A DNA stretch of 64,000 bases, taken from assembly GCA_905178155.1 (NCBI GenBank), contig CAJINV010000007.1:2461151-2525150 (forward strand), in the 5' to 3' direction. Under the pieces are notes generated by a model, which saw only the letters and a program-made list of their open reading frames with translations, ran no database searches and was not told the origin of the DNA. The stretch is from Amoebophrya sp. A120 (Eukaryota > Protista > Dinoflagellata). The translations under genes and the position numbers were made by a program. Below, piece after piece: positions 962 to 59,800 of this stretch. Each line of letters opens with the position of its first letter. Position 1 is the stretch's first letter.

Positions 962-3900
962 TTATGTTTCTTTAGATGATTTTGCAAGGCATATGCTCAG
1001 CAGGGCGTCCAGATACGCCGTGGCTGAGGCACTGGACTTCGACAAAGCCTTAGGCGCCATCTCCTGGTCGTACGAGTTGGTTCGGCTTAACGCGTTTTTC
1101 AAGTAGTCTTCCAGTTTTTCTTCTTCTTCTTCCCGTCCCTGCTTGACCTTCTCGCCCACCGCTTCCCGGACGAAGTACGAGCGCAGCACGATCTCGCAGG
1201 GGCGCCTGTGCGCCAACAAGTTCTGCCGTCGCTCCGGCGTCAGCTCCGCGTAGGGTTCTCCGCAAACCTTCACGATGTACTCTCCCTTCTGCACGCCGCT
1301 GGTTTCTGCCCACGAATCCGCGACGATGTCGACGATAAAGTGATCGCGAATGTGAAACCCGAAGCCGAGTTTCTCCACCCCGAAGGGCACCGTGACGGTG
1401 CGCTCTGTGTACAGGCGCTGCTCGATAGGCTATCAAAGTGAAAAAAGCCCCCACCCCATACCGGAGACGGAAGATGCGCGAATTTGTGATGCTGTATTTG
1501 AGTACACAAGTCGACTTGTATTGCTAGAAGGCCAAGAGACGAGGCTGCGGCCTAAATTGCAGGCAATCTGTCATGCTGTTTCCCACTTCCAGTTGCCTCC
1601 TGTCATCCTGGAGCTGCAAGGCTTTCCCACGCTAGACAGCACTACAGTCCGCATCTTTTGCCTTCTAGCATCACAAAGCTGATTTTTGACCACAAATCTG
1701 CATCACAGATTTTCGCCTTGATATGGGGAGGGGGGACTTTTCATTGCAATATAGGCGGCTTGATGTTCATCGACCCCGTCACCGCTCCTGTGCTCGGGCT
1801 GGAAAGAATTTCTGAAGAGGTCATCTTAGAATGCATCGCGGGAACGACCACCGGAGACTCTCCATCCGGGTGGTCCTCCTTTCCCTCTTCATCTGGCCCG
1901 CCGGAGGAAATTTGCATCCTCTCCGCTTCGTCGGCCCCCCGTTCCCCCTCTGCGTAGGCGCTGCTCTGAAAAAACGTCGGAGATTGCAGCTTCTGGTGGG
2001 GGTGGGGCTTTGAACTACCTGAGCTTTTTTGCTTTTCGTCGTAACGAAAATAACGAGATCGTGAACCAGAAGCTTTTTCTTGATCAACAAACGACTCCAC
2101 TGCGGCAGGAACTGAATTTTCTGCTGCAGCTGCTGCTACAGGCGCCGACTTCTCGAGGAGGGACGACAAAGAATCCCGCTCCTGTGTCGGTGCACCATCT
2201 TCAAATACACCACTATCCTCTTCCCCCTCGTCCCCTATTGCGGTACCGCCAGCAAAGGCTGCGAAAGCGGCTTCCATTTTTCTCTGTTTCGGCGAGAGCT
2301 TGGCCACCGGTTGTACCGCCGAAGCCTGTCCACCGCGTGGTCGTGGTGAGGCACTTTCTCCGGGAGTTTTTTCATGCAGGGTGACCTGGTCGACGTCGAG
2401 CTCGTCCACCGCGGCTGCGCTACTATTAAATACCGCAGCTGCGACGTCCTCTGCTGACTGATACAGCTGCGGAGTTGTGCTTGTGGTTCTAGAAACTCTT
2501 GGATTCGAAACCCAATGGTCGTGCACAACCCAAATATTCCCGGTTCCGGTCAACACGACGTAATTCGGATCATAGGTGTCGAAGCACCGGATGCCCGGGA
2601 CCTGAAATCCGCACAGGTGATTGCGATTCACCTGCATGTAGTCGCGAAGCTTGTACTTGCGCAGCAACCCCCGGCAGAAGAGACTCACCGGCGCGGAAGT
2701 TTTCCGCGAAAAGCACTTCGCCGTAATTCTGCAGTAGCTTTCCAGGTCCGTCAGCGTTTTGTTTATTTCCCCCGACAGCAAATCATGATTTTTCAAGCTA
2801 CTGCTGCTCGAGGTACTGTAGTTGCTGTAGTTGGTTGCAACGACCTGTCCTGCGAAAGAGAAGTCATCCGCCGACAGTGCCTCTACGGAAATTGGTGCAG
2901 TCGCGGCAGCGAGGAGACTATGCTTGAGGACAACCGAAGTGTCGGCGTCCAGACAGACGGCGGAGAGACTGCGGCTGCTCGTGCACACGAGCGAGATGGA
3001 GCGGTAGGTAGCGGGTTTTTCTTTTCTGGTTTCGTACGGGTTGGCCTTGATTTTCTCAGCTGCTCTTATTTCGGATGCTTCTGTTGTCGTGCTGCTGTTC
3101 ACGTACACCCTCAAGCTGGTCGAGTCAAAGGTCTTCGGCAAGCGATTCGAAGGCACTTCCAGCACGTTCAGACTCTTCCCCGCAGATCCATGCGGCCCTC
3201 CGCGTGGTGAGGTAATCGCAACGTCAAGGTGCCGGTGTCCTTCCTTGTTTGTTTCATCAGAGGAGTCACTCTTGTTGTTTTTCGGAGTCCTCTTGTTTTT
3301 CAGCTCATCAATAGGATCATCTCCAACAAGCCCAATGGCGGTTGCGATTCTGGCCAAAAACGGCGATGCCTCGTAGCTCGTCTTCGAGACTGCACTAGTT
3401 GGTGCTGGCGAAGCCCCGAGGCCTAGCGGCGGTTCTCCAAGTTTTTTGACATAGTCATTCGTATTCTGGCTTTCTCCATCTTGCGCTGCCGGCGGTGAAA
3501 TAAAGGAAGAGACTCTATCCTCAAAGATCCCTCCGTCAATCGACACCGGCTTGGCCAATTTCCGCCAGACCAGCAAGGCCGCCCCGAGGTCTAAATCCAC
3601 CTCTAGGATGGACGGCGCAGTTGGGGATGTGGCCAGCTGGTGCACAGCAACTCCAGCGGAAGTCGTAGCGCCGTAACCGCTGGCGCCCCCTGTTTCCGAA
3701 GCTGTAGCAGATCCTCTTAAGACCCGCCATTCAAAGTCCTCTCCCGCTCCGGAATAGTCGCCGTCCGTTAGGTCGCAGGCGAAGTTTAGCTTGTATTCCG
3801 GTAACAGAGGAATCTGCCCAACCGCGTTTCCGGACAGGGTAAATATGCTTTCCATGGAGGCATGCTGCTGTTGATTCTCGTGTGCTTGCGCACACACAAC

Positions 3901-6687
3901 AAGTGGTCCTACTTGCGCCGATGGTTCTTGCACCAGCACCTGCGCATTAGTCGCTCTCGTCGCACTCTGGCTTTGCTCTTGTTTTCCCGGACTGCTGACC
4001 AACCTGACGTCGCTGCCCACAGGGTTCAGCAATGGTCCGGTCCGGTTTTGGTCGGGGAACGTCGAGAATATTGGCTCAACGCCGGGAATCATGGGCTTTT
4101 GGACCTGATAAGATAAAGATGCATGGATCGATGTTGTCACAACCATAAATTCAATTGTGAGAAATATCCGCTTAGAACTTTAGGCTTCACTCCACGTGAT
4201 GAACACCTTTTATGTAAGCATGACGCTACACAAAAGACTACTAAACGACATCAATGCAGATAACCAAAATCGAACCCACCGCAGTACCGTCTTCGGCTGC
4301 TTCAGCCCCACCGTCCTACTGCCAGAGCCGGTGAATGACAGTGGCTTCGTCAGAAACGCAGACTCTTGCAACAACGGCGTGGTGTGCAATATAGAGCTGG
4401 CCGTGGCGGCGCTTAGCGGAAGTGCCCGGCTAGTGCTCTGCGATGTTGAAGGTGGATCCGCTAGTCCTGCGCCAGGCGGTGGTAGTCCAAGGGTCAAGTT
4501 CACTGGGGGCTGCAGATAGTTTACGCCGGTACTAGGTGTACTAATCATGCCCGTGGTCGTGCCGTGCTCGCCGCCTACGGGGGAGAAGTTTTGTTGATGT
4601 TGCACCATCCCCGATGTGACCGACGAGAAAAACACAACCCGCCCATCTGGCAAAATCGCGCTCGAGGGTGCGTAACGGATGCTGGTAGCTTTGTAGTACT
4701 GGGACTGAGTAGTTGGAGAGCCAGGGGGGGACGAAGAAGAAGACCTCTTTGCGGCCCGACTCCCACTCTGGATGTTCTCGTCCTCCTCTTTCGGACTCCC
4801 CGGTGCCGGCGGTGATTTTGTTACATTGTCCTTACTGTTTGTCTTTGTGCTGTTTTCTTCCCCCGCCGCGTGGCCGCCACCGGAACTACGAGCTAAAGCA
4901 GGACTCGCTGCGCTTGACAACGCCCCATTCACGACAGCCGCGCCTTCCTGTTGCGTCGCCCGGTTCACCGCGCGCTTCAATTTCTGCCGCGCGCCCTCGA
5001 CGACGAACTTCTTTCGCTCCTTCTCCCGTAGCGCCGCTGCCTGCTCTTTGTCCTTCTCGCTTTTGCTTTCAAAAAGCGACGCCATGGTCGGGCGCGCGTA
5101 GTGCGGCAACTCCTTCTGTTGCTCCTGCACTCTTTTCACCACGTCAGCGAAAGATTTCATCTTGGTCTTCCGTACTGGCTGCTCTACGTCTTGAGCAGAA
5201 TCTTCTTTATCATAACTGTTGGCCGCCGCCGCAGTCGGCGTTGCGGTTTGCGGTCTTCTTGTGGAAGAAGCAAACACCGGCTTGAAGCGTGACGGTACAG
5301 AACTATTTCCATTCGATGCAATATTTGTTTTCGTCGTTGCGTCCTCGTCGTACTTGCTCAACATGCTCGCATTTTCGTTTCCATTTCCTGACGCTGTCTC
5401 GTGCAGATCCACGCGAACTGTCGGTGTTTTAGCATGTTGTTGCTGATGCAGTTGCTGCTGGATGTTCTGTCGTACCACTGCCGTTGCGCGCCCTTCGGGA
5501 AGAGTTGTGCCCGCTTTAGTGGTCTCGGCGTGGTAATCGTTGCTGTTCATCGTATTGTTTCCTCCAGCATCGAAAACACTTACCCTTTCTTTCCGCTCCA
5601 TCTGTTGCAACAGACCCTGAACGAGCTGCAAACTCTTCCCCAAATTCTGTGGCGTTCTCAAATGTTACATTCTCAACTGTTACATGAATTTGTAATGCAA
5701 GAACGGCGAAAGTGAAAGGTGGAAGATTGCGCCTTTTGCATTACAGATTTGGCACAGATTTAGATGCTGTCTAGCCCTTCGGATATTTGTCATGCGAAGC
5801 AGCTTGATCGCGGCGATCTTGGTGGTGCATTTGCATCACAAATCATGTAACAGTTGAGAATGTAACAGTTGAGAACGCCATAAATTCAGACTGACCCGGT
5901 CCGCCGAACTGGCACTGGATACCCTAGAAGCCGTCCGGGCACCTCCGTGGTCGGCACGCACCGGGCCGGGGGGATGAAGCACTTTTTGGAATCGACCGTT
6001 CAGCGGATGACGAGAAGGAGCCCCGTTTTCTTGTTGAGCATGGTGGTGTAGCTCCAAAGTGGCAGCTGCGAACGCCCCGCTGGCCGTAGTCCTCTGCGCA
6101 ACACTAGACGCAGCTGTTTCTCGTTGATTTTGATGTAGCCCAGCATCCACTTCATTTTGATTATCATTATGATTTGTTTCGGTTAAATCACTCGTCACCA
6201 CGCCGTCCTGTCCAAACTGCCGCGGTGTCTTCACCGTCTCGAGGCGCACGTTTCGTAAAAAAGGTTCCGGAAACTTCGTGTTTTCGATCAAGCGAAACAC
6301 CTGCGGAAACGCCTTCCTCGACAAATTCAACGCGTCCATATTTCTCGCCACGTTGTCGGGAAGCGCTTTGCTGCCGTGGCGGGCCGGAGCGCTGGTGGCC
6401 TCAACGTAGTTTTTTGTACTACTATTCGGTGGAGGGACCGCAGAGCCTGAACCAGCAGAAGGTGAGCCACCCACGACTGGAGCCACGCTCGGTGACGAGT
6501 TTAATGCGTTCAGTTCTCGCAACTGTGACTGCTCGAGCACGCGTCTGGGCGTATTGCTCGGAACAGAACTCATCCGTGTCGCCAACGCCTCGGCGTGCAA
6601 CCGCATTTTCCGTCGGGTCCGCTCGGTCAAGTCGTGCGTGTCCATGATCCGCGGTGTTGTGGAACCAAAAACGGAAGACGACATCAT
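962..6687 (-). CDS. Large low-complexity protein with C-terminal PDZ domain (multi-exon)
   Basis: ORFs 5836..6687, 4210..5661, 1741..4146 and 962..1390 join in frame via introner 5648-5882 (RVSLN|LGKSLQ), a probable GT-AG intron ~4106-4285, and introner 1431-1751 (KPPI|EQRLY). Last ORF has a PDZ signature KLGFGF...SWAETSGVQKGEYIVKVCG. The 3' end may continue into small exons at <600. Confidence 0.65.
1431..1751. mobile_element. TIR introner, 321 bp, TSD TAGGC
   Basis: Left end tatcaaagtgaaaaaagcccccaccccata vs reverse complement of right end tattgcaatgaaaagtcccccctccccata. taggc at 1426-1430 and 1752-1756. Removing 326 bp restores frame. Confidence 0.85.
5648..5882. mobile_element. TIR introner family A, 235 bp, TSD AATTC
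   Basis: ~40-bp TIR t(g/a)tggcgttctcaa(a/c)tgttacattctcaactgttacatga. aattc at 5643-5647 and 5883-5887. Removing 240 bp joins two ORFs in frame. Homologous to 57393-57627 in opposite orientation. Confidence 0.93.
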
Positions 6688-8187: not shown

Positions 8188-10918
8188 TTAGGCCGTTCCA
8201 CTTCCTGCACTGTGCTCCTCCCCAACCTTCTTGAAGTGCAGATCCCAATCGTACGTTCGCGCCCACTCCGGGGTGTGCGCCGAGTCGATCCACAGAGCTA
8301 AGTCGCGGTCCTCCTTGTGCTTGAAATCTGGGGCACGCGGGTTCCGCTTGTCGTTGCGGCAATCCAACCTGAGGTTGCAATTGATGCGTGCATCATAATG
8401 CATTCTCATGCTTCCTGACTGATTATTTGGACAAATGCGCGAACACGATGAAGCCGCACGGCATGTTGACAAGAATCACAAAAAAACCTCATACCAGTCT
8501 GCTCCTTCCATTTTCAAAGATTCCCACTTCTTCTCCACCGGGATGTACGGTTTTCGCTGGTAATTGTTTCGATACGGCGACCGCCCGAACGAGTTTCCAC
8601 CGCTTCGCGGGTAACTGTTGCTGAAAGATGAATGCTATACATTGCAAAAGTAGCATCCTTTGCTTTCCTATCCTCGTACTACTTTTAGTAGAAATAGCAT
8701 TACAGATTTTTCCAGAAGGGAAAATAGGATTTGTTGTGCTGCTTTTGCTATAGAGACGAGATATGTGTGTCATGCTGTAGTGCAATAGCAATTAGCACGA
8801 GTGCGAAGATACTTTTGCAATTCATAACCGCGGTTGCCCGTACTGCGACCGGGGCGGGAGACTGAAGAGCGTTTTGTTCGAGATTTGTAGTTCTTCATCT
8901 TCTGCTAGTCCTAGTGCGGGTAGTTCTATTAAATCCACAGTTTCTACATCAATGAGTCATGTCTTTGAACCATAACGTTTCGTTGCGTTCCTTTCGAGTG
9001 TTATCCACAATGATCACACACCCAAGCGGCCCATTGGACCGCGCCTATTCATTGGGGCTGGGCGAAGCAGGCCGTGCCTAGTGTCCCTAGCGGGGAACAG
9101 CCCACTCCACCACCTGCCCCCAGGCGGGCAAGACCCCCCCAGAACCCCACCTACGGTGGTTGAATGGGGGGAAACGCGCCAGCCCCAGCCCCACTTGCCC
9201 ACCAGGGGAAAACAGAAAACCCATCCACGGCAAACAGAGCAACCTTCCAACGCGGGCAAAAGTCGCTATAATCAGCAGCAGAGGTGGCTTCGCGTTACCT
9301 TATCCTTACCCGAAGGCCATCACAAAGGAACGTAGTAGAAGAAGCATAGACCATATTTGCAAGGAAAGTGCGCGAAGCGGCAGGCAGCGCCTCCTAACCG
9401 GTAATGAGTAAGAGAAGCAAAGCCCTTCCACGAAAGTAGAAGTAACACTCACTACACCCTAGCCAGCAAGGCCCTGAAGGCAACTCACATCCGCGTCTGG
9501 TGGAACAGCTAGCAACCAAGTAGCAAGGCCAATACCCGCACCATCCAACTGGAAATCCCCGAGTATCACCCGTGCAATATCCAATAAGCAGTACAGCGCC
9601 AGAGTCCCCAAGTCCACCCCCGCAAACGGAAGGAGCTGCCCAAAGGAGGACTCCCGCCCACGTCTACTGCAAAAGAAAGCGAAAGAGAGAGACTAATATA
9701 TATCCGGCGAGGCGGCAATACTGACGTGGCAAACCTACAGGCAGGAGAACAGCGCCGCCATGCACTCCGTCCACTGAGAAACGTCGCAGAGAACGGCTGC
9801 GGTGCCCCACAGGGGAGCGGACAAAAGCGCCGGAAGACCGAAAACTAGCCTAAACCTCCATTCCGAACAAGGCCCGCGGCCCCCTCCCGGGGCGAAGAGA
9901 TAGTTGCGCGCCCAAACGAGTTTCCACCGCTTCGCGGGTAACTGTTGCTGAAGGAGGACCGCGGTTGCCCGTACTGCGACCGGGGCGGCAGACTGGAGAT
10001 ACGTTTGTTCGAGATTTATAGTTTTTGCAGGTCTTCCTCTTCTGCTAGTGCGGGTACTTAGTTCTATTAAATCCAAAATTTCTACACCAGTGCCTCATAC
10101 TCATGTCTTTGAAAAGCTATGACGACTAAGAATACTGGTCAAATTGATCCACTTTGTAGCCTAACGCTTCCAACGCTGCTGCCATGTCCGGTTTTCCTTG
10201 GTAAACCTGAAAATGAAAAAATGGTGTGATCATGATCAACATATAAAAATTCGGCGGGACAAGAACTGTACAACTGTCATTTCGCGGGTGAAAAAAATGA
10301 CTTCACGGATGAGTGTACAGCTAGCATCGAAGTGGTCGAACTCACTGCTGCTGTTTCCTTGCATGAGCCCTGCTGTAGTATGCCGCTTGTAACTACTACT
10401 AGTCTTCTTGAGTTGTACATCGATCAATTCTTGAATAGTACCCTTTCCCGCATCAGCCACTGCTGATAATCCTTCGGCGTTTGATCAATTGCAATCCCCC
10501 GGTGCTTGCCGAAGCGCATCACATACTGCGGACGGCTCCCGTCACTTATGCAAGAGTTGCGCAAAAGTATCGCTATACCTATAGTCGGTATTGTACTGGT
10601 ACTAGTATAACATAAGCTGCAGCTAGAACTTTCCCAAGCTGCATGATGCTAGTTCAAGTAGAGAATGAAAAAATCTGTAATTATTGCCAGCGCCACGAGT
10701 GCTGCGATACTTTTGCAAAGAATAGCAGTTGTGTAGCACCGACTGGACGAGGCTGCGGTACAACTTGCGCCGCCCAGGAGATATTGAAACCTGCCTGCAG
10801 AACAGGATGTGTATGTGATGGGGACGGCTGCGCCACCAAGGGTTGCTAAATTTCGCCCTATCACTGATTGCACCTGAGGAGTCAGCGCTCCGGTGGTCGT
10901 GCGGGAAGCCACAAACAT
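8188..10918 (-). CDS. Putative organellar ssDNA-binding protein: DUF3820-like (FGKH.G) motif + OSB-type PDF motif (multi-exon)
   Basis: Manual splice gives MFVASRTTTGALTPQ|VSISPGRRKLYRSLVQSVLHNC|ISDGSRPQYVMRFGKHRGIAIDQTPKDYQQWLMRER|VYQGKPDMAAALEALGYKVDQFDH|LPPRSQYGQPR|SSFSNSY...EKKWESLKMEGADW|LDCRNDKRNPRAPDFKHKEDRDLALWIDSAHTPEW... GT-AG introns 10207-10441, 8862-10135 and 8369-8494; introners at 10555-10724 and 8636-8826. Contains an internal exon duplication. Confidence 0.6.
8636..8826. mobile_element. TIR introner family F, 191 bp, degenerate TSD (aatgc/accgc)
   Basis: tatacattgcaaaagta vs revcomp tatgaattgcaaaagta. Removing 8631-8826 gives CAA CCG CGG TCA TCT TTC, matching the uninterrupted duplicate at 9908-9992. 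Confidence 0.88.
9908..10113. repeat. Diverged duplicate of 8581-8969 lacking the introner (empty site)
   Basis: Blocks acgagtttccaccgcttcgcgggtaactgttgctgaa and accgcggttgcccgtactgcgaccggggcgg are adjacent here but separated by the element at 8636-8826. Similarity continues through the intron to catgtctttgaa. Confidence 0.9.
10555..10724. mobile_element. Decayed TIR introner family F
   Basis: gcaaaagtatcgc...gcgatacttttgc inverted pair; right end resembles that of 8636-8826; flanks gcaag/gcagt. Removal keeps frame (HNC|ISDG). Confidence 0.6.
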
Positions 10919-17846: not shown

Positions 17847-19068
17847 TCAGCAAGGGCGGGCGCCAAGCAGCGGAGGACGTACTACTACCTCCCGACGCCC
17901 CGCCCGGCCGAGTTTGGTGCAGGGAACTCGGAGTGCCGAGCAGGCTCGTTGCGGCCGCGCCGAGATTTGGCGCGACAAAGGACTGCCCTTTGAGAGAGGA
18001 TCTTATTCCCTGAAAATTTTCATTTTTCCCCGGCCCTACTTATCACTTTTTACAAGACAGAAGCTGAAGCAGGCTCTTCGTCTTCTTCTTCTTCTTCATT
18101 TTTTGCATGACAGATTGGACTATGGGAGTGATAAATATAAATATAAATTTTCAGGGAATAGACTTGGTCAAGGGTGACTGAGCGGTGGAGGAAGACAGCA
18201 GACTGTGAAGACCCCCTCCAGAAGAGTGCTGCAAGAACAGCCCAGGCGACGCAGCAGTGGCGGAGCAACCTGTCGTGTTGAAAAGTGTGGCTCCACCTGT
18301 AGTCGTCCCGAGTCCACCTAGATGCACCTGTGTCAGCAAGCCTCTCGTGGAAGAGGTCGAAGCCGATAAAGGATGGTGCTCGCCGGTTGATAGGTCCTGC
18401 TGCGTTATTGCTGTAGCAGTCCCTCTCATGCTGGACGAAGAACTAACTTGTCGCGACGCGCCCCCGGCGCTGTTGATAGGTGGGGCCGCACCGCCGTTTA
18501 CATTTACACCAAGATGAGAAGAGGTTGCAGCAGCACCACCGGCAGCTAGCGAGGCGTCCTTTGCGGGAGCCGGTTTATTGGCCGCCTTAGATCCAAGAAC
18601 AGCGGCAGCGCTCGCATTAGTGGTTGTACCATTGCCTTTATTACTGTCAGGCGCAAGTGCTGCAGCGTCGGAAGTTTTAGCTGAGGTTGAGCTTGTTTTC
18701 ATCTGTGACAGTTGTTGCAAGCAGTGCTTCAAAAGTTCGTTTCCAGCCTGGTATTTCTTGTCGAAATCTGCATCTACTGCTTCGTTACATTCAGGATCAG
18801 CTGCTTCTGATGCGGTGTCCGAGCTACAACTTGAAGCATTTATATTTTCATTAGAGCTCTCCCCCGGCCTAAGATGCTCATCCATATAGTCTTCCTGCAA
18901 TTCACTTACATATTCCCGCAACATCGCCCGGACGTCTCGCCGGAGACTCTTGCACACCGCGTTTTCCTTCTTTCGCTGTTCGAGCTGGTCATTCTTCTTT
19001 TTCAGCATGGACCGCAGCCGGCTTTCGGGAGTCCGGGTCGCGGTCGTATTTGATGATGTCGCATTCAT
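17847..19068 (-). CDS. Hypothetical coiled-coil/low-complexity protein
   Basis: ORF 18151..19086 continues in frame (LTKS|SLKGQSFVAP) after removing introner 18004-18160 plus 5 bp. 3' end uncertain; may extend into ORF 17509..17853. Confidence 0.55.
18004..18160. mobile_element. TIR introner, 157 bp, degenerate TSD (gatct/gactt)
   Basis: tattccctgaaaattt at both ends in inverted orientation; contains gcatgacaga. Confidence 0.8.
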
Positions 19069-44204: not shown

Positions 44205-47200
44205 CTACAGATCGTCGTCGTCATCCAGCCTTCTGATTTCCTGGTACTGCAAAAGCATCCCCGGCACGCGTGCCCGTTTTGCCTCCTCCTGCTGCTTCTG
44301 CAGTCGCATGGCCTCGTCCCGGGCCGCCCGCCACTCCTCCTCGGCGCCGCCGAAGACTTTTACTTCCTTCAAGAAATCCGAAACGTGGACGGAGAACTCG
44401 TTTGCCTGCTGGCACGTATTGAACAATCCGAGAACCATATCGCAAGAAAAAACTGCTTCACTGTGAACTTGTGATGCAGAAAATGGAGCACAGAACTATT
44501 TGTCTTGCTACACCTACAAGACACTGGATTTTCAAGCGTGTTTTCCCTTGGGAAACGCGCATGGCAAATTTTCTGTGTCATGTGTAGCAAACTTGTGATG
44601 CGATTCGTACAAAATCATCACAGTGAAGCAGTTTTTTCGTGGGATAGACAAAGGTTTCAATTTGCGTCTGGTTCAACGTATTCGGAAACGTATTCTGGAA
44701 GAAATCGACTAACAGCTGCATGCACTCCTTTATCCAGGAAAAAACACCCATCCCCATCCATGTTTTGCATGACAAATAGTGGACTTTATGCATGTTTTGC
44801 ATCACAAATTGGATGGGGATGGATGTTTTTTCCTGGATATCCTTCTGCGAGAACGCGAGCGGGTTTTTTGTCCTCGCACCGTCAGAAGGTACTAGGTTGG
44901 AAGAGGATGCAGCTGGGTCGTTGGTCAGCGAGAGAGCCGCTAAGCCGCCAGAACCGGGCTGCTGCGTGGACGCGAAGCCTCCTGGACCTAAGCCAAGTGG
45001 TCCTGCACCTGTGCTGTCGTGCGAAGCGTCGTGGCAGCCGCGAACCAATTCCAAAAAAATCTCCACCTGGTGTTTCAGCCCGCTGGTGTGCATGGTGTCG
45101 GTCAGAATCCCCAGAACCGCATTCAAAATCAAGGCATAAAACTCGCGAAAGAAGGGCTTCGACGCTTCCGGCGGTAGGGATTTTAGCACCTGCTGCAGAA
45201 ACTGCGAGAGAATCTGCAGTGCGGTTTGCGACACGACGGGATGTTCGTGCTTCATACCCCAGAGGAGGGAATTCAGGTACAACCGCATCATGTCATCGCG
45301 CAAGCTGAACAGAGAGCTGAAGCAGTCACGGTTCACGGCGGAAAGGAGGTCGAACCTGTCGTGATAGATCAGTGATATAATTTGTTTCGCAGGTGGACGC
45401 GTCGAAAACTCGAAAAGACAACGAAGCAAAGCTGCTGAAAAATTCGAAAGAACAGAAATTGGCAAAATGAAAATCTAGATCTATGTCTATCACTATCTAT
45501 CATGATTCCATCTGACTATCATTCCATCTAACAAATGAAGGACGAAGGTAGTACAATTTGATCCGATGGTCTGGGAAGCTCTGCATGTCGCTCTCCAGCA
45601 TCCGCAGCGTCGGCGCGACAATCATGTCGAAGATGCGCGGCATCTCCGTTGATATCGGCTTTCCCAACTGCGTCACTAACGTTGTCAGCAAATCCAGCAC
45701 TTCCGCGTCCCGCGCTTCCGGCACACCATTTTGGTAGTCCTGCAGCACCGGCTCGAGCAAAGGGGGGACGACGAAGGTCGCGACCTCCTGCTCCAAGGCA
45801 GCGGGATCTTGCTGTAATTGCAGGAACAGCTGCTGGGACTGCTGCGTGGTGTCGTTCGGGCCGAAGGTGTTCAGGTCGGCTTGCTGCTCTGCGGCTAGCG
45901 CGGTTGCGGAGCACTTCTTCAGGTACGTGGTCACCAGCCTTAGGGTTGCGCGCTTCGCGGTTCGCATCTGCCGGACGTTGGCGAGCTTCAAGGCATTCGC
46001 GCCGGAGTTGCTCATATTCGGGTGCATTTGTATCATTTCCGCGGTCTTCTGCCCAATGTACTGCGAGAATAGCTTGTAGAGCTGCAGTGAAGAGCTGTAA
46101 ACCGCGCGAAATTGCTTGGTGAAAGCTAGGCCGACGGTCCCGGCAACGCGCTCATTCAAACGGAGGTACTGAAATTTATTTGTGGTTTTTGATATTTCCG
46201 GACCCGGAGTTCTTTCTGCATTCTTTTATATCTAGCATGCGTCGTGAAGGAGAAGGACCCAAAGTCGAAGTTGTCAACTTGCAGCCAAGAAGCTGAACTA
46301 TTTACTGTCACTAACCAAGAAATTCTACGTTTAAGTTAATCCGACGCACCAGTTGTATCTATACCAACGCCGTTCGCTTGAGTTCGTCAATGTTTTCGCA
46401 GAGGCTTTTCCCTTGGTCAATCTGGATGTGCCGGATGGTATTGACGAAGATGTCGTTGAAGATAGAGAGCAGCTTTTCCACATACTGCTCCCGGTCCACA
46501 GGCCGCGCGGCGCCGATCATCATGCCAATGGACTCGTAGTAGGTGGTGATCAGCAGGTGGTCTAGGTCGTTGATGTTGGATTTTGTCATCTCCAGAAGTT
46601 CCACCAGAAACGGTTCCGCCGCGTCCGGCTGGGTCGTCACAAACTTTTTCTTGCACCTGATAACGTAAAAGTTCAGGAAAACAGTAAAGGTAATATGATC
46701 TATTTACACAGAAAAAAATTATTCATGACAGCACTGATAACTAAAAGTGCTATTAGTTTATCAGTAACGTCGTGATCCTGAATAAGGCAGCAGAATCGAA
46801 AGACATTGTCGCAGTGGAAGTGATAGCACGATTGAACAACAAGTTGCGCAGTGCTTTAGTAGCTGAATCAGTTATGTACTTTTGCGTGATCCGCAACAGT
46901 GTGTCCACGGCCATTTCCTGCACGCCCGGAAAGGACTCGTGCATGAACTCGATCAGCTTCAAGATCACGGTTTTCAGAAATCTCCAGTGCGCCCGCAAGA
47001 AGGACGGATACTGCCCCACCACGTACATGATGTTGCTGGCCACAATCGCTTTGTTTTCCTTCCCCCGCTTCAGATCGCACAAGGCCAGCAAGTCCTTGAT
47101 CACGGACACGAGAAACCGTTTTTCGTGGTTCTCAGAGAGAGCCCCCGAGACGGACCCGATCGCGTAGCACAAGCGGTTCAGGTTGCCGGGCGACCACCGG

Positions 47201-49366: not shown

Positions 49367-51175
49367 TGGTAGCTCTTCTTGTAGAAGTAGAAGTCGTTTA
49401 TACTATATTTTTACAACCGCATGGGAACTAGACGTACAACGTTCACATCGTCAGATAAGTTTAGAAGTTCCACAACACTTTAGCGTTACAATGTCAGTGA
49501 TGAGGCTTCCAGGGAGTCAAAATAAGATGGACACGGATCATCAAGAAGATGATGATCATGAAGGTTCACTTATGATGTCGCTTGGTGTCGCCTGTCATCA
49601 AAGCAGAAAAATGGGCAAAATCCTTTGCAGTAATGTGAAACAAACGATTCAAATTAGCATAAACTGATAAGATGATCGTCATGAGCTTCTGCTTCATCTT
49701 CTGGGTGTTTTTCGATGTATGGCTGCGGATCTTCTTGTTTTGGCTTTGGCACTGTTCATCCTCCTGCGTCTGTTTCTGTAACCACGTTCGTGGCGTCCCC
49801 AAAAATCTGCAACATATCAAGAGGACATTTGGATCTACTTGACGATAGCACCACCACTTGTCCGTTTTCTATTTTTTCAGCACTTCTGTCACGATTTCTT
49901 TTGGACCATTGGCATCGCGACAACTGGTACGAGAACGACACCAGGCTGCCTCTACTTGGATAGTTCTGTCACAAAGCTGCCAAAAGCGACTGAGCGTTCC
50001 TTTCGAGTTTGTGCAGCATCTCCTTCCGGAGGTGACCAATACGTTTACAACCATGATCCAGAACAAAGCGCTGACCATACTGTTTGCGAAGTTCTGTCCT
50101 GCTTAATAGGTCAGAAGACATTCAGTCGCGCCGACGTTTTCTTCCTGTTGGTCTTGGTTGCGTAAGTAGTGACGAGTAGAAGTAGAGCTCGCGACCACAA
50201 AATTCAGGAGGAGCAACTCTCAACGATTATGCTGCTGCTTGGGATTTGGTACATTTTTCTGTCGCGCGCAAGCAGGCCGCTTTGCTGTAGGTAGTTTGTC
50301 GCTATCATATCGTTCATCGGGACTACACAAGAGAGCTCTACTTTTCGTTTTTTTCCCAACATCTAAAATACCGCATGATTTTCCTACTGGCGGTAGTCGA
50401 TGCGTCATTTTGAAGATGCTCATCTCGGCAATTATACCTACAAGCTTCCAGGTGGAGTGATTCTGTCGTGCGAAGCTTCTCCTCCTGTACGAACAGAGAA
50501 AGCAAAGAGGTATTTTCGCTGTAGACTAATATTCTCAATTGTTTATTGTTTTTCGTTAGATTTCTCAAGGAGATGTCGCAATACTAGTGGTAATTTTATC
50601 TGGGTAGTTTCATCTTGGATCTGTATCATTGTCAAATTGTACATGAGCTAAGACTTCATAGAATTTTATGCAAGTCACAGTACTGGCAGCACTGAGGCTC
50701 CACCTACCAAGATTCGGGCGGAATCTGGTTTCGCCATACATCAAAAGAAGATATTCGTGTACATCAGTATCGCAGCAGATACAAAAAGTTTGTGTAGAAG
50801 AGTCGCGAGTAGATTGAGTTTGAGATTGAGAGTGTGAGTTGTGATCATAAAAATTTAAGTTTTTCAATTACATCCGAAGGATGGATGGTTGTTCATTCAA
50901 GATAATCTGCTTCGAGTGTTCAAATTCAACATGTTTCTTTCAAGAGGCGATGCGAGAGAACAAAGAAAGCTCCGAATTGCTGCTCGTCGTTTCCACAGCC
51001 ACAACGTTGGAAAGGCTGCGCCAGATGTCGTGGCTACAGCAAATGCTTTTTCTCGTAGTGGTATGCATTGCAAATGTGTCTTGGTCTGGATCATGCTAAG
51101 GAAGGTCGACACAAAGATTTGGCTCTGGATTGAATAACTACACAGGAAATAAGTAAGTAGGAGCCATCTCCACCA

Positions 51176-54100
51176 TCAAACTTGTGAATGTGTTGCTACA
51201 GCTCGTATTTCACATAATTCTTGTGGGTCATGCCAAAGCTGCATCGCAAATCTTTGCATCGTTCCAGACGGAGACCTATTTTTTGCAGTGGATAAGTAGA
51301 TGATTTTGGAGAAGATGCAGACGACGATGCCGAGCAGGGAAACGATCACCATCCCGTGAATATCGCAAGAAAAAATATGTTTCACTTTAAATCTGTAAAT
51401 GCAAAGGATCCTCCATCACAAAAGATGCCGCTGGGCTGTCGTGCTACACATGCAAAGCAATATAAATATAGCCGTATTTATTTCTCCTAGAGACAATGCT
51501 CGCATGATGATGTTGACACATTTTGATTGTCTTTGTCATGCGGAAGAGCAAGAAACCTGTGAAGATGCAGCAGCTACTAGCCCTGCTGCTACATCAACTT
51601 TGCTAAATCACTACAGTGAGACAGTTTTATTTTCGTGCGATAGTTCATCCAGCTCGTGTAAAACATTTGGCTTTCCGCGGCCCGTTTGATGGCATCCGTC
51701 TGCTCGGAAACCGACATCACCTTCTTGTCCGTCTTCGCGGCTTCTTGGGCCTGATATGAACGTAGTGGTAGTTTTTGATCTTCTTGTTGAGACAGCACAG
51801 GATGGTCATGGTCGCGCCTCTATCTTGTTAGAGTAAATTCATTCGAACCTTGGAAAGGAGTAGCACTAGGCAAAACTACATCATCTCAGTTCGTTCTATA
51901 CCGAGGTGGAAACCGTTGCCAGCTTCTGCGTGTCTTCTGCGCTGCTTGAGATCACGTTTTTGATACTTCCCATCTCCTGCCGAAGTTCGCGCAGTATGCG
52001 GTCTTTTTTGGCTTTTTTCTCCGCGGCGCTCATCTCAATACGCCGCTTCTCGCCTTCGTCTGTATTTGAGTTTGTTTCATCTGACGGAGTTGTAGATCGA
52101 CATCGATTTTTGCACTTAAATAATATCTGAGCATCACAGCTGACGTTCATCATGTCGTGACATTGGTGCAGACCACCATCTTCTATTCTGAATGAAAAAA
52201 CGAGATGAATTTGTTCTCAAACAGCGCTACTTCGTTCTATACCCAAGACGTAGTGGATTTCGTTCTTCAACTTGAGCGCGCTGGCTTCCATGTCCAGCAT
52301 TTGGGATTTCACGTGCAGCAGGGTCCTTGCCTGGCTCTCCTCCGTCTTGTGACTGCCCATCACGTACTGCTTCAGCATGCCCAGGATGCCATTAATCGCT
52401 TCCGTTTGCTCGCGCTGGTTCTCTATGCCCTGCTCAGGCGGAACGATTTCTTAGGTGGAACAAGGTCGTGGTCAAGCCGAACGCTGTCTCGTCTGAAAGG
52501 GAAAAGTCAAGTCTGAATCTGATGTGATTCATCGTTTGCTCCTGCCTATTTGCATTACAAACTTTACGCAGATCATTGTTCCAATGTGGTCGTTTGGAGT
52601 TGTCTTGGAGATCTTTTACTGCCATGCTGGACTTGTTCATGACAAATTCTTCCAGTTCAAATCGTTCCGTCTGAGGAGGCCATACTCTCAAACAAAAAGT
52701 TCTTTTTGTGAAGGTCTGCGTACATGTCCCGAATTTCCTCAGCGACACCGGATTATGAGAGTGCACAGAGCTGCTCCCGCCCTTCATTCATAACTTGCAA
52801 TTGCGAAATATTACTTGTTTCACTGCTACATCTACAGTCCACCGTGACTTGCGGAAGATTTAATTATCATGCGGAAGAAGCATCCTTTGTGGAGTGCTTC
52901 TCGTTCTCCTCTTGCTGCTCATGCATGATTCGAAATGAAAAGAGGGAGTGGAATCGTGCACTATCGTACAGACATCTCGGAGCCCACGGTGGCGAGGTTG
53001 TAGTTCCAGCTGTTGGATAATTTGGATCTTGATTCATTTATTCCTGCTTTGTAAACTAGGCACAGATTGTGAAGCCGTAGTAGTTGCAGGCGAGGGTGGA
53101 TGAACAAAATGCATATAGTTAGATGCAACATGGAAAAATCATCAGTAAAGTTTAAATTTTCTACGTGCGGATCTTTTTCACCGCCGCCCTGAAGTCGCCG
53201 GGTGCCTGTCCCGCGACTTTGGGCGTCCCGCTCCAAGCTGACCAGCCCATGTAGGTCCGCTTTGGGGGTTCGTAGTCTCTCAGCATGCAGACATGGCGCC
53301 AGTAGTGGGCATTGCGGTCGCTGGCAGCGCTCGTGCCCGTAGCCGCGAATCTGATTTTTTTTTATCAAAAATCAAAAAAAAATCGACGTTTCGCGTATAG
53401 CTATAGAATGCGAGTTGATAAACCACACAGGGAAGAAGTAGCAAGAAGGACGAGGTGGACGTCGAGCAGAGAGACATAGAGCTGTTCTAGCAAATAAGTA
53501 CATATTAAATTTTCGATCACAAATTATCTATAAATTTTACTTGTAGTCCACGCTGACAGATCCGGCTTTCACCCGCACTCGAACGTCCAGTGGTTGATTT
53601 CGAAAATCGATTTTCATTGCGTTTTTGTCCGGGAAATTCACACCCATCTGGAGTTTCTCTGAGCGCGGTGTTCTGGTACCTGCGGCGTTTGTTTCGTTTG
53701 TCAAAAAAGAACGAAGCGTTTTCACGCAATTACATCACAACTACCCGCCTGCTGCGTGGATGATGACTGCAAACAAAACCTATAATAGGGTGACTGATGG
53801 AGATGGTGAAGCAGAGTGGTAGGTGACATACAACATCACTACACAAAATTAAAACTGAGCACTTCTTCTATACAGCTCAAATTTGGGTTCACATTCCCGG
53901 TCTCATCTTCGATCGAGAAGATGAGGCCAAACCCCCGGAGCGTCGTGTCGTGGCCGAGGAAATCGTACCCCAAGTGCGCCAAATTGTCGTTCCAGTCGCT
54001 ATATCAAAAGTAAAAGTGTCTGGGTCTGGAAACTTGTGATGCTGGGTGGCGTCTCATGATGAGGCTACGAATACTGGCTCAGCATGGCAAGTTTCTGAGC

Positions 54101-55088
54101 TCCTAGGTGTTGCCTATTCTGCATGACAAACTGCGGCTCTGCATCACAGAAAAACGGAGCTCTTTCTGGGTAACGTGCGTGACAGATTTAAGAGTCATGC
54201 CAGACAAGCATGACAAAAATGAATTCTTCCAGACCCAGACATTTGTGCATTTGATACGCTATCAGCCTGGTTCATCGGAGAAGAGCCGACGATGTTTTTC
54301 GCGTTCAGCACCGACGTGACTTGAAAGTCCGTCAGCCAAAATGCCACGCCGACGTTCCGCGTCTTCGGGATGATGTTCAAGGCGGACACCTTTCAGGTAG
54401 TTGATGTGGGGACCGACGATGGGGGAGAGCAGGACGACGATAAATTTGTATTTGATGGAATACGGATAACAATTTCAACTTCTACACGTTCACATACTGT
54501 TTACTGCATGATCCAATTCCACCAAGTAATTATGATCAAAGCAGAAAGAAGAACCCACTCTAACTATACATCCAGTTGAAACTGCACTTCCCAGTTGTCT
54601 GTCGTTATCGCTTCCCGGTTCCACAGCTGGCCGCTCCTTTCCGTGACGTCGGTAAACAGCTGTATCTGATCCGCCATGGGTATCGCGCAGGATTCTAGTG
54701 ACCATAGAGCCAGCCCGTTGTCGGTTATGTTCCCGTCCCGGAACGTGTGGTGTACTAATTCTATCCATTTCACCCGCTCGCCCCTTCTCCTCGGCGTGTG
54801 CATAGTGTCATACGCGTATTGCGGGGGCTGGTTGGGCGGGGGTGGCGGGTTTTCCGTGGCAGAAACGCCTGGGATCATGTTGATCGAGGGGAGCAATACG
54901 AGGGAGGAAGATAGTATCGCTGGTATAATTGATGTTGCTAAAGCTCCTGCTGCGGTTGAGATTGCTGAGGAAGAGGTGGATGCCGCTGCACTACTAGAAG
55001 TACCGCCGTCGCTGAAGGGAAAGGGGGAAGTACTGGAGGAAGCGGCCAGGACGCCAACAAGGACGCCACCGGGTCGAACGATCACCAT
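51176..55088 (-). CDS. ERGIC-53/VIP36/Emp47-like L-type lectin with coiled-coil stalk and TM helix (multi-exon)
   Basis: IQLFTDVTERSGQLWNREAITTDNWEVQFQLDV, GVAFWLT, LRGFGLIFS, IDFRN, YMGWSAWSG, coiled-coil exons, TM GMVIVSLLGIVVCIFSKII. C-terminal tail uncertain. Confidence 0.75.
51361..51642. mobile_element. TIR introner family D, 282 bp, degenerate TSD (gtgaa/gttca)
   Basis: tatcgcaagaaaaaa... left end; ...ttttcgtgcgata right end. Removing 51356-51642 joins SWMN|GMVIV in frame. Confidence 0.82.
54002..54256. mobile_element. TIR introner family B (same orientation as 25912), 255 bp, TSD CGCTA
   Basis: cgcta at 53997-54001 and 54257-54261; interior colinear with 25912-26164; join QADS|DWND. 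Confidence 0.94.
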
Positions 55089-56838
55089 TTTGGCGAGTAG
55101 TGCTCCTGCGTCGTCGTTCTGGATTGGTTTCTTTATTGTTATTCACGTCCTCGCGCCGCTTGCGCTTCCTTATGCACAACTGCGAATAAATTTACGCCGT
55201 TCAGTCTCGGCTTCTACCTTTTATCAGATGAGCAGCCTTTTTAAAACGACTCCGAAATTTTCTTTGTCTCAGGGAATCGCTACAAGACCAGGGTCTATGC
55301 TTCAGCTGGTGGAGGTGAAGTACTTCGCTGGCTTGCGATGAGCTGCTAGCCCAGATAGTAGAATTTGTTGACGAGTGCGCTCGTTGCGAGATTTGGCGTC
55401 GATTTGCTTGTACTGGTTCTCGGTTCCCACTCGGACTTCTACCCGTACTAGCTTTTCAAGATGACGAGAGTGATGATCTCCTTATTTGTTGCATTTCACC
55501 ACGGTATTTTCAAGTGCGCCTCTGCGTTGCAGTCGGTGCCGGTTCTTGCCGCAACTTATCCAGCGCCGCGTCGTAGAAGTTGTACTATGGGCGGTTCAAC
55601 ACGTTTATTTTTCTTGCCCCGGCGGGTTGAAAGCAAGTAGAGGTGGATAATATAGGACGGCGCAATTATGACCGGAGCAGGACGGCAAATAAATTGCAAC
55701 AAAATTAGCTGCTTGCGGCACGACTTGCACTGCTGGTCCGAGGGCTCGGAAGAGCTACGGTGCGGGGCATGTTGGTTGTGTTTTTTGTGGAGTCTATCTT
55801 AGTTCCTCTTTGAACAGTGGGTGTGGGAGAACGAGTGGTGGTCGCGCCTGGACGACTACCACCTGCCTCCAATAAAATAGGCTCTTAGAGATTGTACGAA
55901 CAGGGCTCTATGTCGAGTGACCCATTCTAGTACCTTGTCAAGGCCACGGCGAAAAAGAAATTGTTTGAGAAATGAAGATTTCTTAGGGACACAGCAACAT
56001 GTGAAACAAATATCTAACTCGACATTAGCAAAGTACAAATTTTGGTGTGGCTGCTTTTTTCGCGGCTTCGAAATCGATGAAAAAGAAGCGATCGTTCTAA
56101 ATTAAAAGCCGCGGTCGATAATGAAGACAATACGATCTTCGCGATTTTTCGAAGGGCGACGAATTGTCTCCATATGCATCTCTCTAGCTCTGTGCATTGC
56201 GAGGCGAAACTAGAAAATTACGTTCTATCGAGGATAATCGATCTTGTACCGTATTCGATCTCGATCCCAAGGGAGCTACGTTTAAAAATGTCTTTCGACT
56301 GAGCAGCTACAGCATGTGTGATCTACTTTCCTACGCGGAGATCCTGCGCGCAGGACGAGGTCGCTCGCGTTTGGTGGAAAGGTGAGTATGGTACTAGCTC
56401 GGCCTCTCTAAGGAAAAGAGCCAGGAGCTCGAGCTTTCTTTATTTTTGCACCTAGTGGAGGTCTTCATCATGGAGATGACTTCTACTTCATGGTCCTTGT
56501 CTTCATCAAGTAATAGAATTACAAGCAGTGGACCGACAGCACGTTGTAGATCAAATTGGAGGCATCGACGTTCGCATCAATCGTACAGGTCATCGTTATT
56601 CAGGTCGTTGTCGTTGCGTTACAATTTGATTCGTGTAGAGGTTACAGTTGTTCATCAAGTTCTGAATCTGAGGTACAAACACTTAATTTGTTGCTTCATC
56701 ATACATCATGATCATCCGCAACGAATTTTTACAAAAGTTGAAGTTCGAATTCAATTCGATGCTCCTACACCAGGAGATGGGAAGACAAAGTCTTTGTCTT
56801 ACAAATCTTATCTATCATGCCTTCTTGTTTATTACGTT

Positions 56839-59800
56839 TCATGCCTGCGAAGAACCTCCAGCTGCGATTCCATCCGCCAGAACGTGCTTTACTTTTTTTG
56901 CCCACTGGTCCCGAACCTCTTCGCTGCGAAAAGTAAGCTCCAAAACAGGCGTGTTTACGCTGCTCCACCTGCCGTCGTTGAACAGCAGCACGATTTCCAA
57001 ATTTTGCGTCCGCTGGCCGTGCTGGTTCTCAAGGTAGATATGGATGTGTCAGAGTTGAAATCGACAAAGTTGAAATAATTTGCCATGCATAAAATGGATG
57101 CCAGTTGGAACCCAGTTTCCAAGTGGCGCATGACAAATTTCGGTGGTCCCTAAATCCAGTTTGTCATGCTGTTTAGGCAAAGAAGAGTGACTTTCTCATG
57201 CTACTTTAGCAGCTCGAGCTGTAGCCCTAAACAGGCTTACAATCGACCTCACTTGCCTGCTCTGCAACGCACGCGCCTCGGGTCATGCGTTTTATGCATT
57301 GCAAATTATTTCAACTCTGACGATTTCAAACCTGACGCTTCCATAGTAGATGGCGAGATCGTACACCTCTGTTTCGTACTCGTCGCTTTCGATATGGCGT
57401 TCTCAAATGTTACATTCTCAACTGTTACATGATTTGTCATGCAAAATTCCAATCAGAATCGATACGACCATGCTGCTTCGCATGACAAATTCCCGAAGGG
57501 ACAAACAGGATGAAAATCTGCGCCAAATCTGTCATGCAAAAGGCGCAATCTTCGCCCTTTCAGTTTTGCCATACTTGCATCACAAATTCATGTAACAGTT
57601 GAGAATGTAACAGTTGAGAACGCCATATTCGACGGGGTGCGTTTGAAGCTCTTCAGAACTGTCAAGAAAGGAGGTTTTCTTCATCGTCACAAACTTCGCG
57701 CCAGTCCCGCTGTTCATATATCCGCAGTAAATAAAAATTTACCGCACACATACAACTACAAATCAATGGGGTTTCGGCATGACAAACATTGCGCTCAGTA
57801 GCGGAAGCCTTACTTACAAGCGTTGCTATACATATCTAAGTAAGGTCTTTGTGATGCATTTTGTACGTGTACGGGATGAAATTTGCATTGCGTATCACAT
57901 ACCGGAGATTCACGAACGCGAATGGTGCGGTCTTCTCGCTGTTTGCAAGGAACAGCAACCCGCAGGACAGGTAGGCGAAGCAGATCTTGGTGTTATTTGT
58001 CTGGTTCTCCGTACTGCTGCCCTGCTGTTGGCCCCGAGCAGATAGCGGCTCGAAACTTGTACTGGATGAGAGAAGGGCCCTTGTAGGTTGAAACGCGGTG
58101 GCAATCTTCGTTGGAGAGGCCTCATGCGAGTCGAGGTCGAGGATGATGTTTTTCTCACCAGATGCCCCCGAAGAAGCAGCAGCACCATCTCTAGACGCAG
58201 AAGCAACCAGATCTATCGAAGTCCAGGACGCTGCAACTCCTACCGCTGACAAAGCATTTTTTGCTTTTGATTTAGAGGTTGTCCGTCCATCATCGAGCAA
58301 GTTGCTATTGGACGCGATTATTGTCGTACTACCTCCCGGGGTGCTAGAAGACCACCCTCGCATCATCGTGGACATCGTGCTGACAACCACGCGCTGCGAC
58401 TTTGCTGCTGCGCTACTTTTTGCATCTTTCATATCCCCTTTCTTCAGCTCATCCACCTTCGCCGTGGGAAAAAGCTGCATCGATGGAGCAGACGCTCGAG
58501 CGTTTTTCTGTTTTCCCTTCGCGCCACCAGCTGTGCTGTCCCCTTCTAAGTTTCTTCCGCTCGTCGAGGCACTGCTCCGAGCGGTGGTCGACGCCGTTGC
58601 GGCTGCAGAGGATCCTGACATCGCGACGTGTTCCCCCAACACAAACCCTAAATTCGCATACCGCGAGCTCCTTCTGCCCGTGGATTGCGCTCGTCCTGAT
58701 GTGGTACTAGTCCAGATTGTGTCGCTACTGCGCGCCGTGAAGTCCCCAGAACAAGTAGAAGCTCCTGCTTTGTTGATATCGTGCTGCGGAGAAACGACAT
58801 CTCTTGCCAACATGGGTGGACCACGAGGACCTTGTGTATCTGCAATTGATGCGGTCAAGGCGCCGCATGAAACTGTATCTGTAAATGCACTTCCTTCCGC
58901 ATAATTCAGCATCCTTGACGCAAACGCCTCGTCGTGCTCAAACACTGTGTTGTGACTTGTGAAATTCCCGGTGAAACTCCGCACCAACTCGTCCAGCGAA
59001 ATTTGGTTGAAGTTCGCGTCGCAGAAGTGGAGAATTACCGTTTCTGCGAGGACGTTGGCACTAGTTCCACTGCGGGGTTCTACTTGAAGCGACGAAGAAG
59101 TTGTAGTCGGCTTTGGTTCATCTTGTTCTACCGCTGGCACTAGTTGTGTAGCGCTAGTAGTCGCAGCAAAGCGCTCCAACAGTTCCACCACACTCTCCTC
59201 ATCTGTGAAGGCAACGATCCCGGCTTGCAACGCCGGAATCGGCTCAGCGGCAATCAGGTCGTAGAGTTGATGCAAGAACGGGGCTGCAGCGCTCTCCCCA
59301 TAAGTGTCCAAATCCCCAAATGTACTGTCAATGTTGCTGTTGAGACTGATCCACTCTTCTTTCCCCAATTTCCGATGCTGGATAGTTGTAAAAGTGCCCG
59401 GTGCGTCTCCTTCTACTTCCGCCGCGCCGGCAATCGTCAGCTTCGTGGAAGTTTCATCACTCTCACTATGCAGGTTGCAATGCAGCAGCACGCACGACGT
59501 CAGCAACCCGTACAACCCCTCAAAGCACTTCAATTGCTGCAACACCTCAATGCCCTCCGGTTCCCAGGCGTTGGGACGCTTGTTCGGTTCCTCGATGACT
59601 GGATTTATCTTGCTCGGCGACGAACCGGAGCCACCTCCTCGCCCTTGTTGCGCGTTCATCTGATGGCTTATTTGCACCGCATTGAACTTCCTTTCGCACT
59701 GTCGCCAGAATGTCATGGCGGTGTGGTACAGAATGCGGTCGTACGAAACGGAAAAACTTTCCCCAGCCCATTTTTCAAAAATTTGCATTCCCGTTTCTGA

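Follow-up and report, generated by a model that had tools for sequence, protein, structure and literature searches.

A shared, spaced word in the introner elements of Amoebophrya sp. A120 is a likely DNA docking site rather than a signal for RNA removal

Introduction

What moves some 30,000 intron-like elements through a genome without a known transposase, and how are they spliced without U1? Both puzzles are posed by the dinoflagellate Amoebophrya sp. A120, which carries the most extreme invasion of non-canonical introns described. The text of Farhat et al. 2021 (PMC7789003) counts 29,850 repeated, non-canonical introns in 1,954 families; it describes inverted repeats made of TAT, seven variable bases and at least three A, with direct repeats of 3–5 nt. 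We analysed 64,000 nucleotides of A120 DNA (GCA_905178155.1, contig CAJINV010000007.1, positions 2,461,151 to 2,525,150), hereafter the window; a 412-residue stretch of the exportin encoded there is 100% identical to an Amoebophrya sp. A120 protein. A first-pass annotation of this DNA had proposed that unrelated families of introner elements share a short word, usually present on both strands, and had named as candidate readers the mobilising transposase or a factor marking these introns for removal. Which of the two does the word serve? We report that it is selected, spaced and confined to the elements, and that it is likely a DNA docking site rather than a signal for RNA removal.

Results

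The word is confined to the elements

The window contains 22 TAT..ATA elements with a combined length of 5,003 bp (Table 1). Fifteen were recognized through their termini, inverted repeat and target duplication (14 by a finder blind to the motif, plus the element at 25620), five by eye, chosen after the list of motifs had been seen, and two through joints in RNA contigs. The word GCATNACA(A/G)A, that is GCATNACARA, has 43 exact matches in the window, compared with 1.08 expected (0 of 100 shuffles reached 43), and all of them lie inside 18 of the 22 elements. None occurs in the 58,997 bp beyond the elements, none in the 11 GT-AG introns supported by RNA (1,992 bp) and none in 17,895 bp of RNA-covered pieces of the window, bearing out both the enrichment in elements with terminal inverted repeats (TIRs) and the rarity in exons and canonical introns noted at first pass. 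Each of the 11 intervals named at that stage proves, at the stated coordinates, to be a TIR element flanked by an exact 5-bp target duplication, and the 109-bp element at 44731–44839 does hold two copies. The claim that copies usually occupy both strands stands for weight-matrix sites (10 of the 11 named elements) and applies less widely to the exact word (6 of 11).

The matrix, derived from element interiors, has the consensus GCA(T)N(A)CA(A/G)(A/G), flanked weakly by T and preceded, ten bases away, by a weak TG. At least two of its sites occur in 20 of the 22 elements, a count that is partly circular because the matrix was trained on these interiors. De novo expectation maximization also returned a loose TG-N5-CA pattern with a higher likelihood than that of the motif, which we take to combine the motif with an excess of TG/CA in the elements. 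CpG is depleted in the elements (observed/expected 0.61) and stands at 1.02 in canonical introns. A scan of viral contigs for paired motifs gave 32 loci; as none has BLAST similarity to the window, these were discarded as chance.

The word recurs in held-out loci

A held-out set was assembled from metagenome contigs matched by a 19-base inverted-repeat word, comprising at least 151 stretches, stored as 148 loci with 504 kb of unique sequence. These loci carry the same element families as the window, with up to 77–97% identity to its elements. A finder blind to the motif, which required a 5-bp duplication and the first three terminal bases, called 335 elements in 23 families of up to 161 sampled copies (the largest family being the one picked by the query); 275 of the 335 have exact 5-bp duplications. 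Matrix sites were present in 22 of the 23 family representatives, and the remaining one starts with TGC and resembles an internal piece of an element. Exact matches occur at 7.35 per kb inside the elements and 0.70 per kb outside, where 222 of 292 sit in uncalled homologues of elements, leaving 0.18 per kb. The representatives hold 38 exact matches; in shuffles that keep their dinucleotides they yield 0.34, so that CpG decay does not explain the word. Nearly half of the called elements (152 of 335) measure 250–275 bp, with other clusters at 200–225 and 275–325 bp. Two long elements (L051:505–1608 and L105:7013–7984) combine intact ends and motif arrays with unrelated internal DNA between them.

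Copies follow a spacing and end grammar

Same-strand copies pair at a distance of 31–33 bp, which is about three helical turns. In 16 window family representatives there are 11 such pairs, compared with 1.27 expected, a value that none of 20,000 permutations reached, also when any 3-bp window was allowed. In the held-out loci, after the largest, query-selected family and four nested or doubtful calls had been dropped, 11 of 60 pairs in 18 representatives fall at this spacing (1.47 expected; 0 of 10,000); the two sets have several families in common and are not fully independent. Pairs at 31–33 bp are present in 11 of 12 multi-copy families. A 16-bp lattice was rejected, as it disappeared once the 32-bp peak had been taken out.

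Copies are also positioned relative to the ends: an outward-facing site lies 30–34 or 38–42 bp from the end at 16 of 38 ends, compared with 2 of 38 for inward-facing sites, these distances having been picked after viewing the data. In the held-out set the ends, whose first three bases the finder required, have family-weighted frequencies of T 1.00, A 0.97 and T 0.99, then A 0.70–0.89 at positions 11–14, with TAT at 257 and 260 of 264 and TGT at 3 and 3. End positions 4–13 are a degenerate look-alike of the motif (mean score −7.3, background −21.7), and the seven middle bases score −9.5, compared with −16.4 for other TAT-N7-AAA words; the published terminal consensus can thus be read as TAT plus a weak motif copy. 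The converse idea, that motif copies are relic termini, was rejected, since internal copies lack a preceding TAT and have an A two bases upstream in only 18% of cases. The 5-bp duplications show no target preference across the 335 held-out elements; none of these can be read as having a 6-bp duplication and two can also be read as having 4 bp, with a finder that required 5 bp and left long duplications unsearched.

The families thus share their ends, duplication length and spacing grammar and are not truly unrelated, as the first-pass annotation had them. Its 11 examples reduce to eight families, because 5648 and 57393 (86%), 25912 and 54002 (84%), and 26355 and 31970 (80%) are relatives; the inverted repeats of the families do differ beyond position 13, in line with its mention of different TIRs. 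Spacers between paired sites are 33% alike across families, compared with 29% when shuffled.

The motif core is under purifying selection

Across nine subfamily alignments of 8–105 copies, the core had a mean minor frequency of 0.03–0.10, compared with 0.10–0.27 for the interior, and was the less variable of the two in all nine. The N position evolves as the interior does (private differences, 8.7% and 8.7%). In 301 homologues collected by BLAST with element interiors, 5.7–5.9% of core positions differ from consensus, compared with 20–25% in the interior; the inverted-repeat positions 14–30 change at 5.6–7.6%, and positions 1–3 and 11–13 at 2.2%. The core is therefore under purifying selection, with the N position free. 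Change in end-proximal cores (~3%) is near the per-copy duplication clock (~2.4%), as expected if the sites matter before insertion and drift afterwards.

Elements are removed from RNA at a fixed cut position

Four sequencing runs (X1–X4) were treated as putative RNA and accepted as such because their contigs lack GT-AG introns; the elements are gone from these contigs too. At least eight joints among those listed, from contigs of one study, skip exactly an element plus 5 letters. Seven of them, in the 44438–54256 stretch, recur in four of four runs from two samples. Contig arithmetic adds three more removals (273 = 5 + 88 + 180 letters, for 25620, 25912 and 26355). Contigs report the presence of a spliced form, not its efficiency, and excision at the DNA level may be an alternative to RNA removal for these joints. 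One RNA contig of 8,542 letters, covering 44001–55860, spans the exportin gene and its upstream neighbour. Two other RNA runs, X7 and X8, contributed 68 and 3 raw reads that match the window, on element DNA only, and these are uninformative about splicing or strand. In X7, which leaves the unique DNA of the window uncovered, 62 raw reads match 28363–28394 and then continue into different sequence with a motif copy.

Five elements with mismatched duplications bracket a single cut position, such that the intron in the transcript is N-TAT..ATA-NNNN, and every informative joint in 44433–54257 fits a cut one base before TAT and four bases past ATA. We assigned the host strand with a codon model, which was right for 14 of 15 window elements and gave agreeing calls in 117 of 118 neighbouring cases. 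Across 234 copies with an assigned strand, the 5′ end of the transcript shows one change of the first T and the 3′ end 12 (p = 0.003), about three of which seem to be misalignments. This is the polarity expected if the T is the U at intron position +2. The removal step seems to need this first T, not the motif. The 11 canonical introns begin with GTA and the first T is selected, so the non-canonical donor reads as NTA; intron position +1 shows no preference for G (33%) and the intron end none for AG (23 of 264). Published tallies fit this register: summing rows of Gozashti et al. 2025 (PMC12130899) ourselves, we find T second in 892 of 1,322, 383 of 540 and 6,681 of 9,716 donor dinucleotides of three large A120 families. 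In the same rows, 864, 375 and 6,598 acceptor dinucleotides start with A, a result that the register does not predict unless many annotated introns lie on the other strand or in the mirror register.

Strand tests and competing explanations

The first-pass alternative of a removal mark would, at the RNA level, cast the word as a branch site or an enhancer of splicing, present on both strands to allow splicing in either orientation. Several observations speak for such a signal. U1 small nuclear RNA is undetected in A120 and in A25 according to the text of PMC7789003, so an unusual recognition step is to be expected. An outward-facing copy lies in sense if, and only if, it belongs to the 3′ end, and 162 of 236 copies carry, near that end, a sense site of at least 8 bits. 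The GCAU-N-A-C part of the motif also resembles the branch consensus. The 5′ mirror position is, however, occupied equally often (164 of 236), and 74 of 236 copies have no sense site of this strength near the 3′ end. Nor did we find the sense-strand conservation near the 3′ end that a branch site or intronic enhancer should show: core change in sense and antisense is 3.0% and 3.2% for end-proximal sites and 6.6% and 6.7% elsewhere (odds ratio 0.97; 236 copies), in a test sensitive enough to pick up the +2 T (1 versus 12 of 234). No subfamily is biased in orientation relative to the transcript (p 0.45–1.0), and raw site counts, in which sites are not independent, lean slightly to antisense (458 sense, 524 antisense). 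Sites are antisense only in 18 of 191 elements and sense only in 11 of 191, with splicing unchecked by RNA. The elements at 44731 and 52424, whose strong sites are all antisense, are removed from RNA all the same, as is 52754, which lacks any site of 8 bits or more. We consider a role as RNA signal quite improbable, and the removal-marking proposal is not supported at this level. Pairing of opposite copies in the pre-mRNA, extending a hairpin that joins the splice sites, deserves hardly any credence: site–site pairing appears in several of 12 predicted folds (for example 1431, 28130 and 57039), but there is little or none in 25912, 44438 and 44731, all removed from RNA, and pairing requires neither one sequence across families nor a same-strand spacing of 32 nt.

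At the DNA level, the word might be functionless, inherited with a single internal segment, or with old element ends, from which the families derive or which they exchange. Short patches are indeed common to families (a 19-bp match links 30679 and 1431), spacers are slightly more alike than when shuffled, and the ends resemble the motif. Against this, the core is about four-fold more conserved than neighbouring bases within families, copies occupy many positions in both orientations, internal copies have no TAT before them, and dinucleotide shuffles fall far short of the observed matches. Ancestry of one segment, which the first-pass annotation had set out as a refutation, is excluded as the sole cause by the selection signal and is very improbable without function; a common origin plus function of the word is likely. 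The main rival is a host DNA-bound protein (a chromatin or anti-silencing factor, or a co-transcriptional splicing recruiter) exploited by the elements, with the mobilising enzyme reading the terminal 13 bp only. The strand symmetry and the 32-bp spacing would suit any DNA-binding protein, the word is common to families whose inverted repeats differ past position 13, and the text of PMC7789003 reports no transposase for A120. Yet the 59 kb of exons, canonical introns and intergenic DNA in the window lack the word altogether, an absence unusual for the site of a host factor; its copies are tied to the distance from element ends, and 52754 is removed without strong sites. We regard this explanation as unlikely, though it merits attention. 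The word may also bear a likeness to the Sox–Oct composite site.

Element inventory of the window

The elements and one example of a paired unit are listed in Table 1. The element at 1431–1751 has 10 near-full-length relatives in the held-out loci, the best at 95%. The 863-bp element at 59742–60604 splits the Sec7 stretch of an ankyrin–Sec7 reading frame; it contains an inner hairpin at 60127–60219, has no relative in the held-out loci and is similar in size to published A120 families of 720–810 bp. A gene piece is duplicated at 8590–8880 and 9910–10110, one copy carrying the element 8636–8826 and the other an apparent empty site, with ~900 bp of unusual sequence between the copies. At 10917–11140, an 11-bp inverted repeat without TAT ends surrounds two matrix sites (10971 and 11078), possibly a decayed element. 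An apparent GT-AG intron at 16140–16550 has one matrix site (16227) and other motif-like words and is perhaps a relic element, and the intergenic nested inverted and direct repeats at 28560–28989, which lack the motif, are a different repeat type.

Table 1. Introner elements of the window, with one paired unit as an example. Sites are weight-matrix sites unless described as exact.
Feature	Position	Strand	Observations
Element, TAT..ATA	765..993		Duplication with 1 mismatch; 3 sites, 2 exact
Element	1431..1751		Exact 5-bp duplication; 6 sites forming three 32-bp same-strand pairs
Element, TGT..ATA	5648..5882		4 sites; no 32-bp pair; family of 57393
Older element	8636..8826		Duplication with 2 mismatches; 3 sites; by eye
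Older element	10547..10724		Relative of 8636; no site, best 2.7 bits; by eye
Older element	18004..18160		2 sites; by eye
Element	25620..25818		3 sites; gone from RNA with one duplication copy (length arithmetic, one contig)
Element	25912..26164		6 sites, 5 on +; pairs at 33 and 31 bp; removed from RNA
Element	26355..26615		5 sites, 4 on −; polarity opposite to 25912 in the same transcript; removed from RNA
Element	28130..28394		8 sites; pairs at 31, 33 and 32 bp
Element	30679..30941		6 sites; two 32-bp pairs; RNA joint skips 268 = 263 + 5
Element	31970..32136		4 sites; one 32-bp pair; relative of 26355
Element	44438..44646		5 sites, exact word absent; RNA joint skips 214 = 209 + 5
Element, 109 bp	44731..44839		Both strong sites antisense in transcript; RNA joint skips 114 = 109 + 5
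Example unit	44767..44808	+	Exact motifs at 44767–44776 and 44799–44808, spacing 32 bp
Older element	51062..51294		2 sites; RNA joint skips 238 = 233 + 5
Older element	51361..51642		2 sites; found via RNA joint (287 = 282 + 5)
Older element	52424..52684		2 strong sites, both antisense; RNA joint skips 266 = 261 + 5
Older element	52754..52968		Best sites 6.5 and 6.1 bits, sense; found via RNA joint (220 = 215 + 5)
Element	54002..54256		6 sites; relative of 25912; RNA joint skips 260 = 255 + 5
Element	57039..57345		5 sites; one 32-bp pair
Element	57393..57627		4 exact motifs; relative of 5648
Degraded element	57717..57894		Relative of 25620; 2 exact motifs; by eye
Element, TAC..GTA, 863 bp	59742..60604		Exact 5-bp duplication; one weak site (8.5 bits); outside the counted 22

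Discussion

We consider it reasonably probable that the word is bound, as double-stranded DNA, by a single mobilising machinery common to the families, likely a DDE transposase of integrase type or a DNA-binding partner of it. This half of the first-pass proposal gains from the selection on the core, the 32-bp spacing, the outward-facing copies 30–42 bp from the ends and the neutrality to strand; it stays a prediction, as no binding protein was found. Such a protein would bind the arrays of sites near the ends and bring the ends together, and copies with good arrays would multiply. The inverted-repeat positions 14–30 would vary freely between families, since they need only match within one element. 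After insertion, the host takes the element and one copy of the duplication out of the RNA.

A number of results weigh against a shared transposase reading this word. No autonomous element was found in the window and the 504 kb of held-out loci, where the longest duplication-bounded element measures 1,104 bp; this search was shallow, covering these sequences and no whole genome. In it, a regular expression for the integrase signature gave six stray matches only, ten frames from two long elements (the longest L051 frame included) matched no Pfam family, and an exact cluster look-up of four window frames found none. According to the text of PMC7789003, A25 yields two putative transposases, A120 none, and its authors argue against general mobilisation by transposases. 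Motif density, whose relation to element age the first-pass annotation had put forward for checking, falls strongly with duplication mismatches in the window (rho −0.66, n = 22) but only weakly in the held-out set (rho −0.10, p = 0.075), and in mismatched copies among the 301 homologues the cores do not decay faster than the termini. The element at 59742–60604 shares the ends of the others and is exactly duplicated at its target, yet contains a single weak site, and one multi-copy family (nine copies) has no pair at 30–34 bp. Helical phasing past the 32-bp peak is marginal (period 10.75, p = 0.035), and the terminal look-alike is degenerate, with 6 of 42 ends above 6 bits and G preferred where the motif has A.

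The elements are those of PMC7789003, as they have its TAT, seven variable bases and AAA repeat and its non-canonical removal. The text of that paper, its figures aside, treats families separately, without an internal motif, spacing rule or fixed cut position. With TIRs, a duplication of fixed length, no coding frame and many copies, they also resemble non-autonomous (MITE-like) TIR DNA transposons. The TA ends and 5-bp duplication point to the integrase-like clan of IS3EU/GingerRoot, IS481EU and Ginger2/TDD; we assign the elements to none of these groups, because none matches in both ends and duplication length. As described in the parts of PMC10045372 and PMC2836005 that we drew on, IS3EU/GingerRoot shares the TA..TA termini but makes a 6-bp duplication, unlike the 5 bp here (0 of 335 at 6 bp; RNA joints of element plus 5), and IS481EU has TNT..AYA termini with a duplication of ~4, 15 or 25 bp. 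Duplications in Ginger2/TDD measure 4 or 5 bp, with 5 bp in TDD-4 and TDD-5, as here, but the Ginger2 termini are TGTNR, not TAT. No group in these sources joins TAT ends to 5 bp, and no subterminal array is mentioned there. Within A120, the text and tables of PMC12130899 describe TIR DNA introners of ~105–320 bp, nearly all of whose diverse families are classed as ‘Unknown’. One ~810-bp family, fam38, is listed as ‘Ginger, 5-bp TSD, TA/TA termini’ (TSD, target site duplication), with LTR-element (long terminal repeat) homology over part of a putative transposase; it shares the TA/TA ends and the 5-bp duplication with the elements here.

Arrays of this kind have precedents. Mu, Tn7 and Tn402/Tn5053 carry several oriented binding sites inside each end, hAT and CACTA elements have subterminal repeats, and Mu and Tn7 make 5-bp duplications. 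In those systems the sites are specific to the family; here one word and one spacing extend across many families whose inverted repeats differ. Searches for motif strings gave no match in the supplements of PMC12130899 (12 of 14 files covered) and, among the papers listed, one text match in the single Amoebophrya paper, on another strain (PMC6482013). The internal motif, its spacing and the cut position are not described in the Amoebophrya introner literature searched, a search that left aside figures and two supplement files, and an earlier mention of the motif elsewhere is possible. The introners are already published; the motif and its spacing are apparently unreported.

A broader and more tentative possibility is that most of the ~30,000 A120 introners form one superfamily, moved by a single protein whose target is one universal 10-bp word, paired at 32 bp, and not the inverted repeats particular to each family, and that a U1-less spliceosome removes them, measuring from the ends (N|TAT..ATA NNNN) and needing only the +2 U. 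If this is true, the signals for mobility and for splicing are separate, and the inverted repeats could diversify into ~2,000 families. The shared, spaced and selected word offers a bait for the mobilising protein and a template for finding autonomous elements, and the fixed cut position with its selected +2 T a direct handle on the splicing route. Together, our data suggest that the ~2,000 families of A120 are one system.

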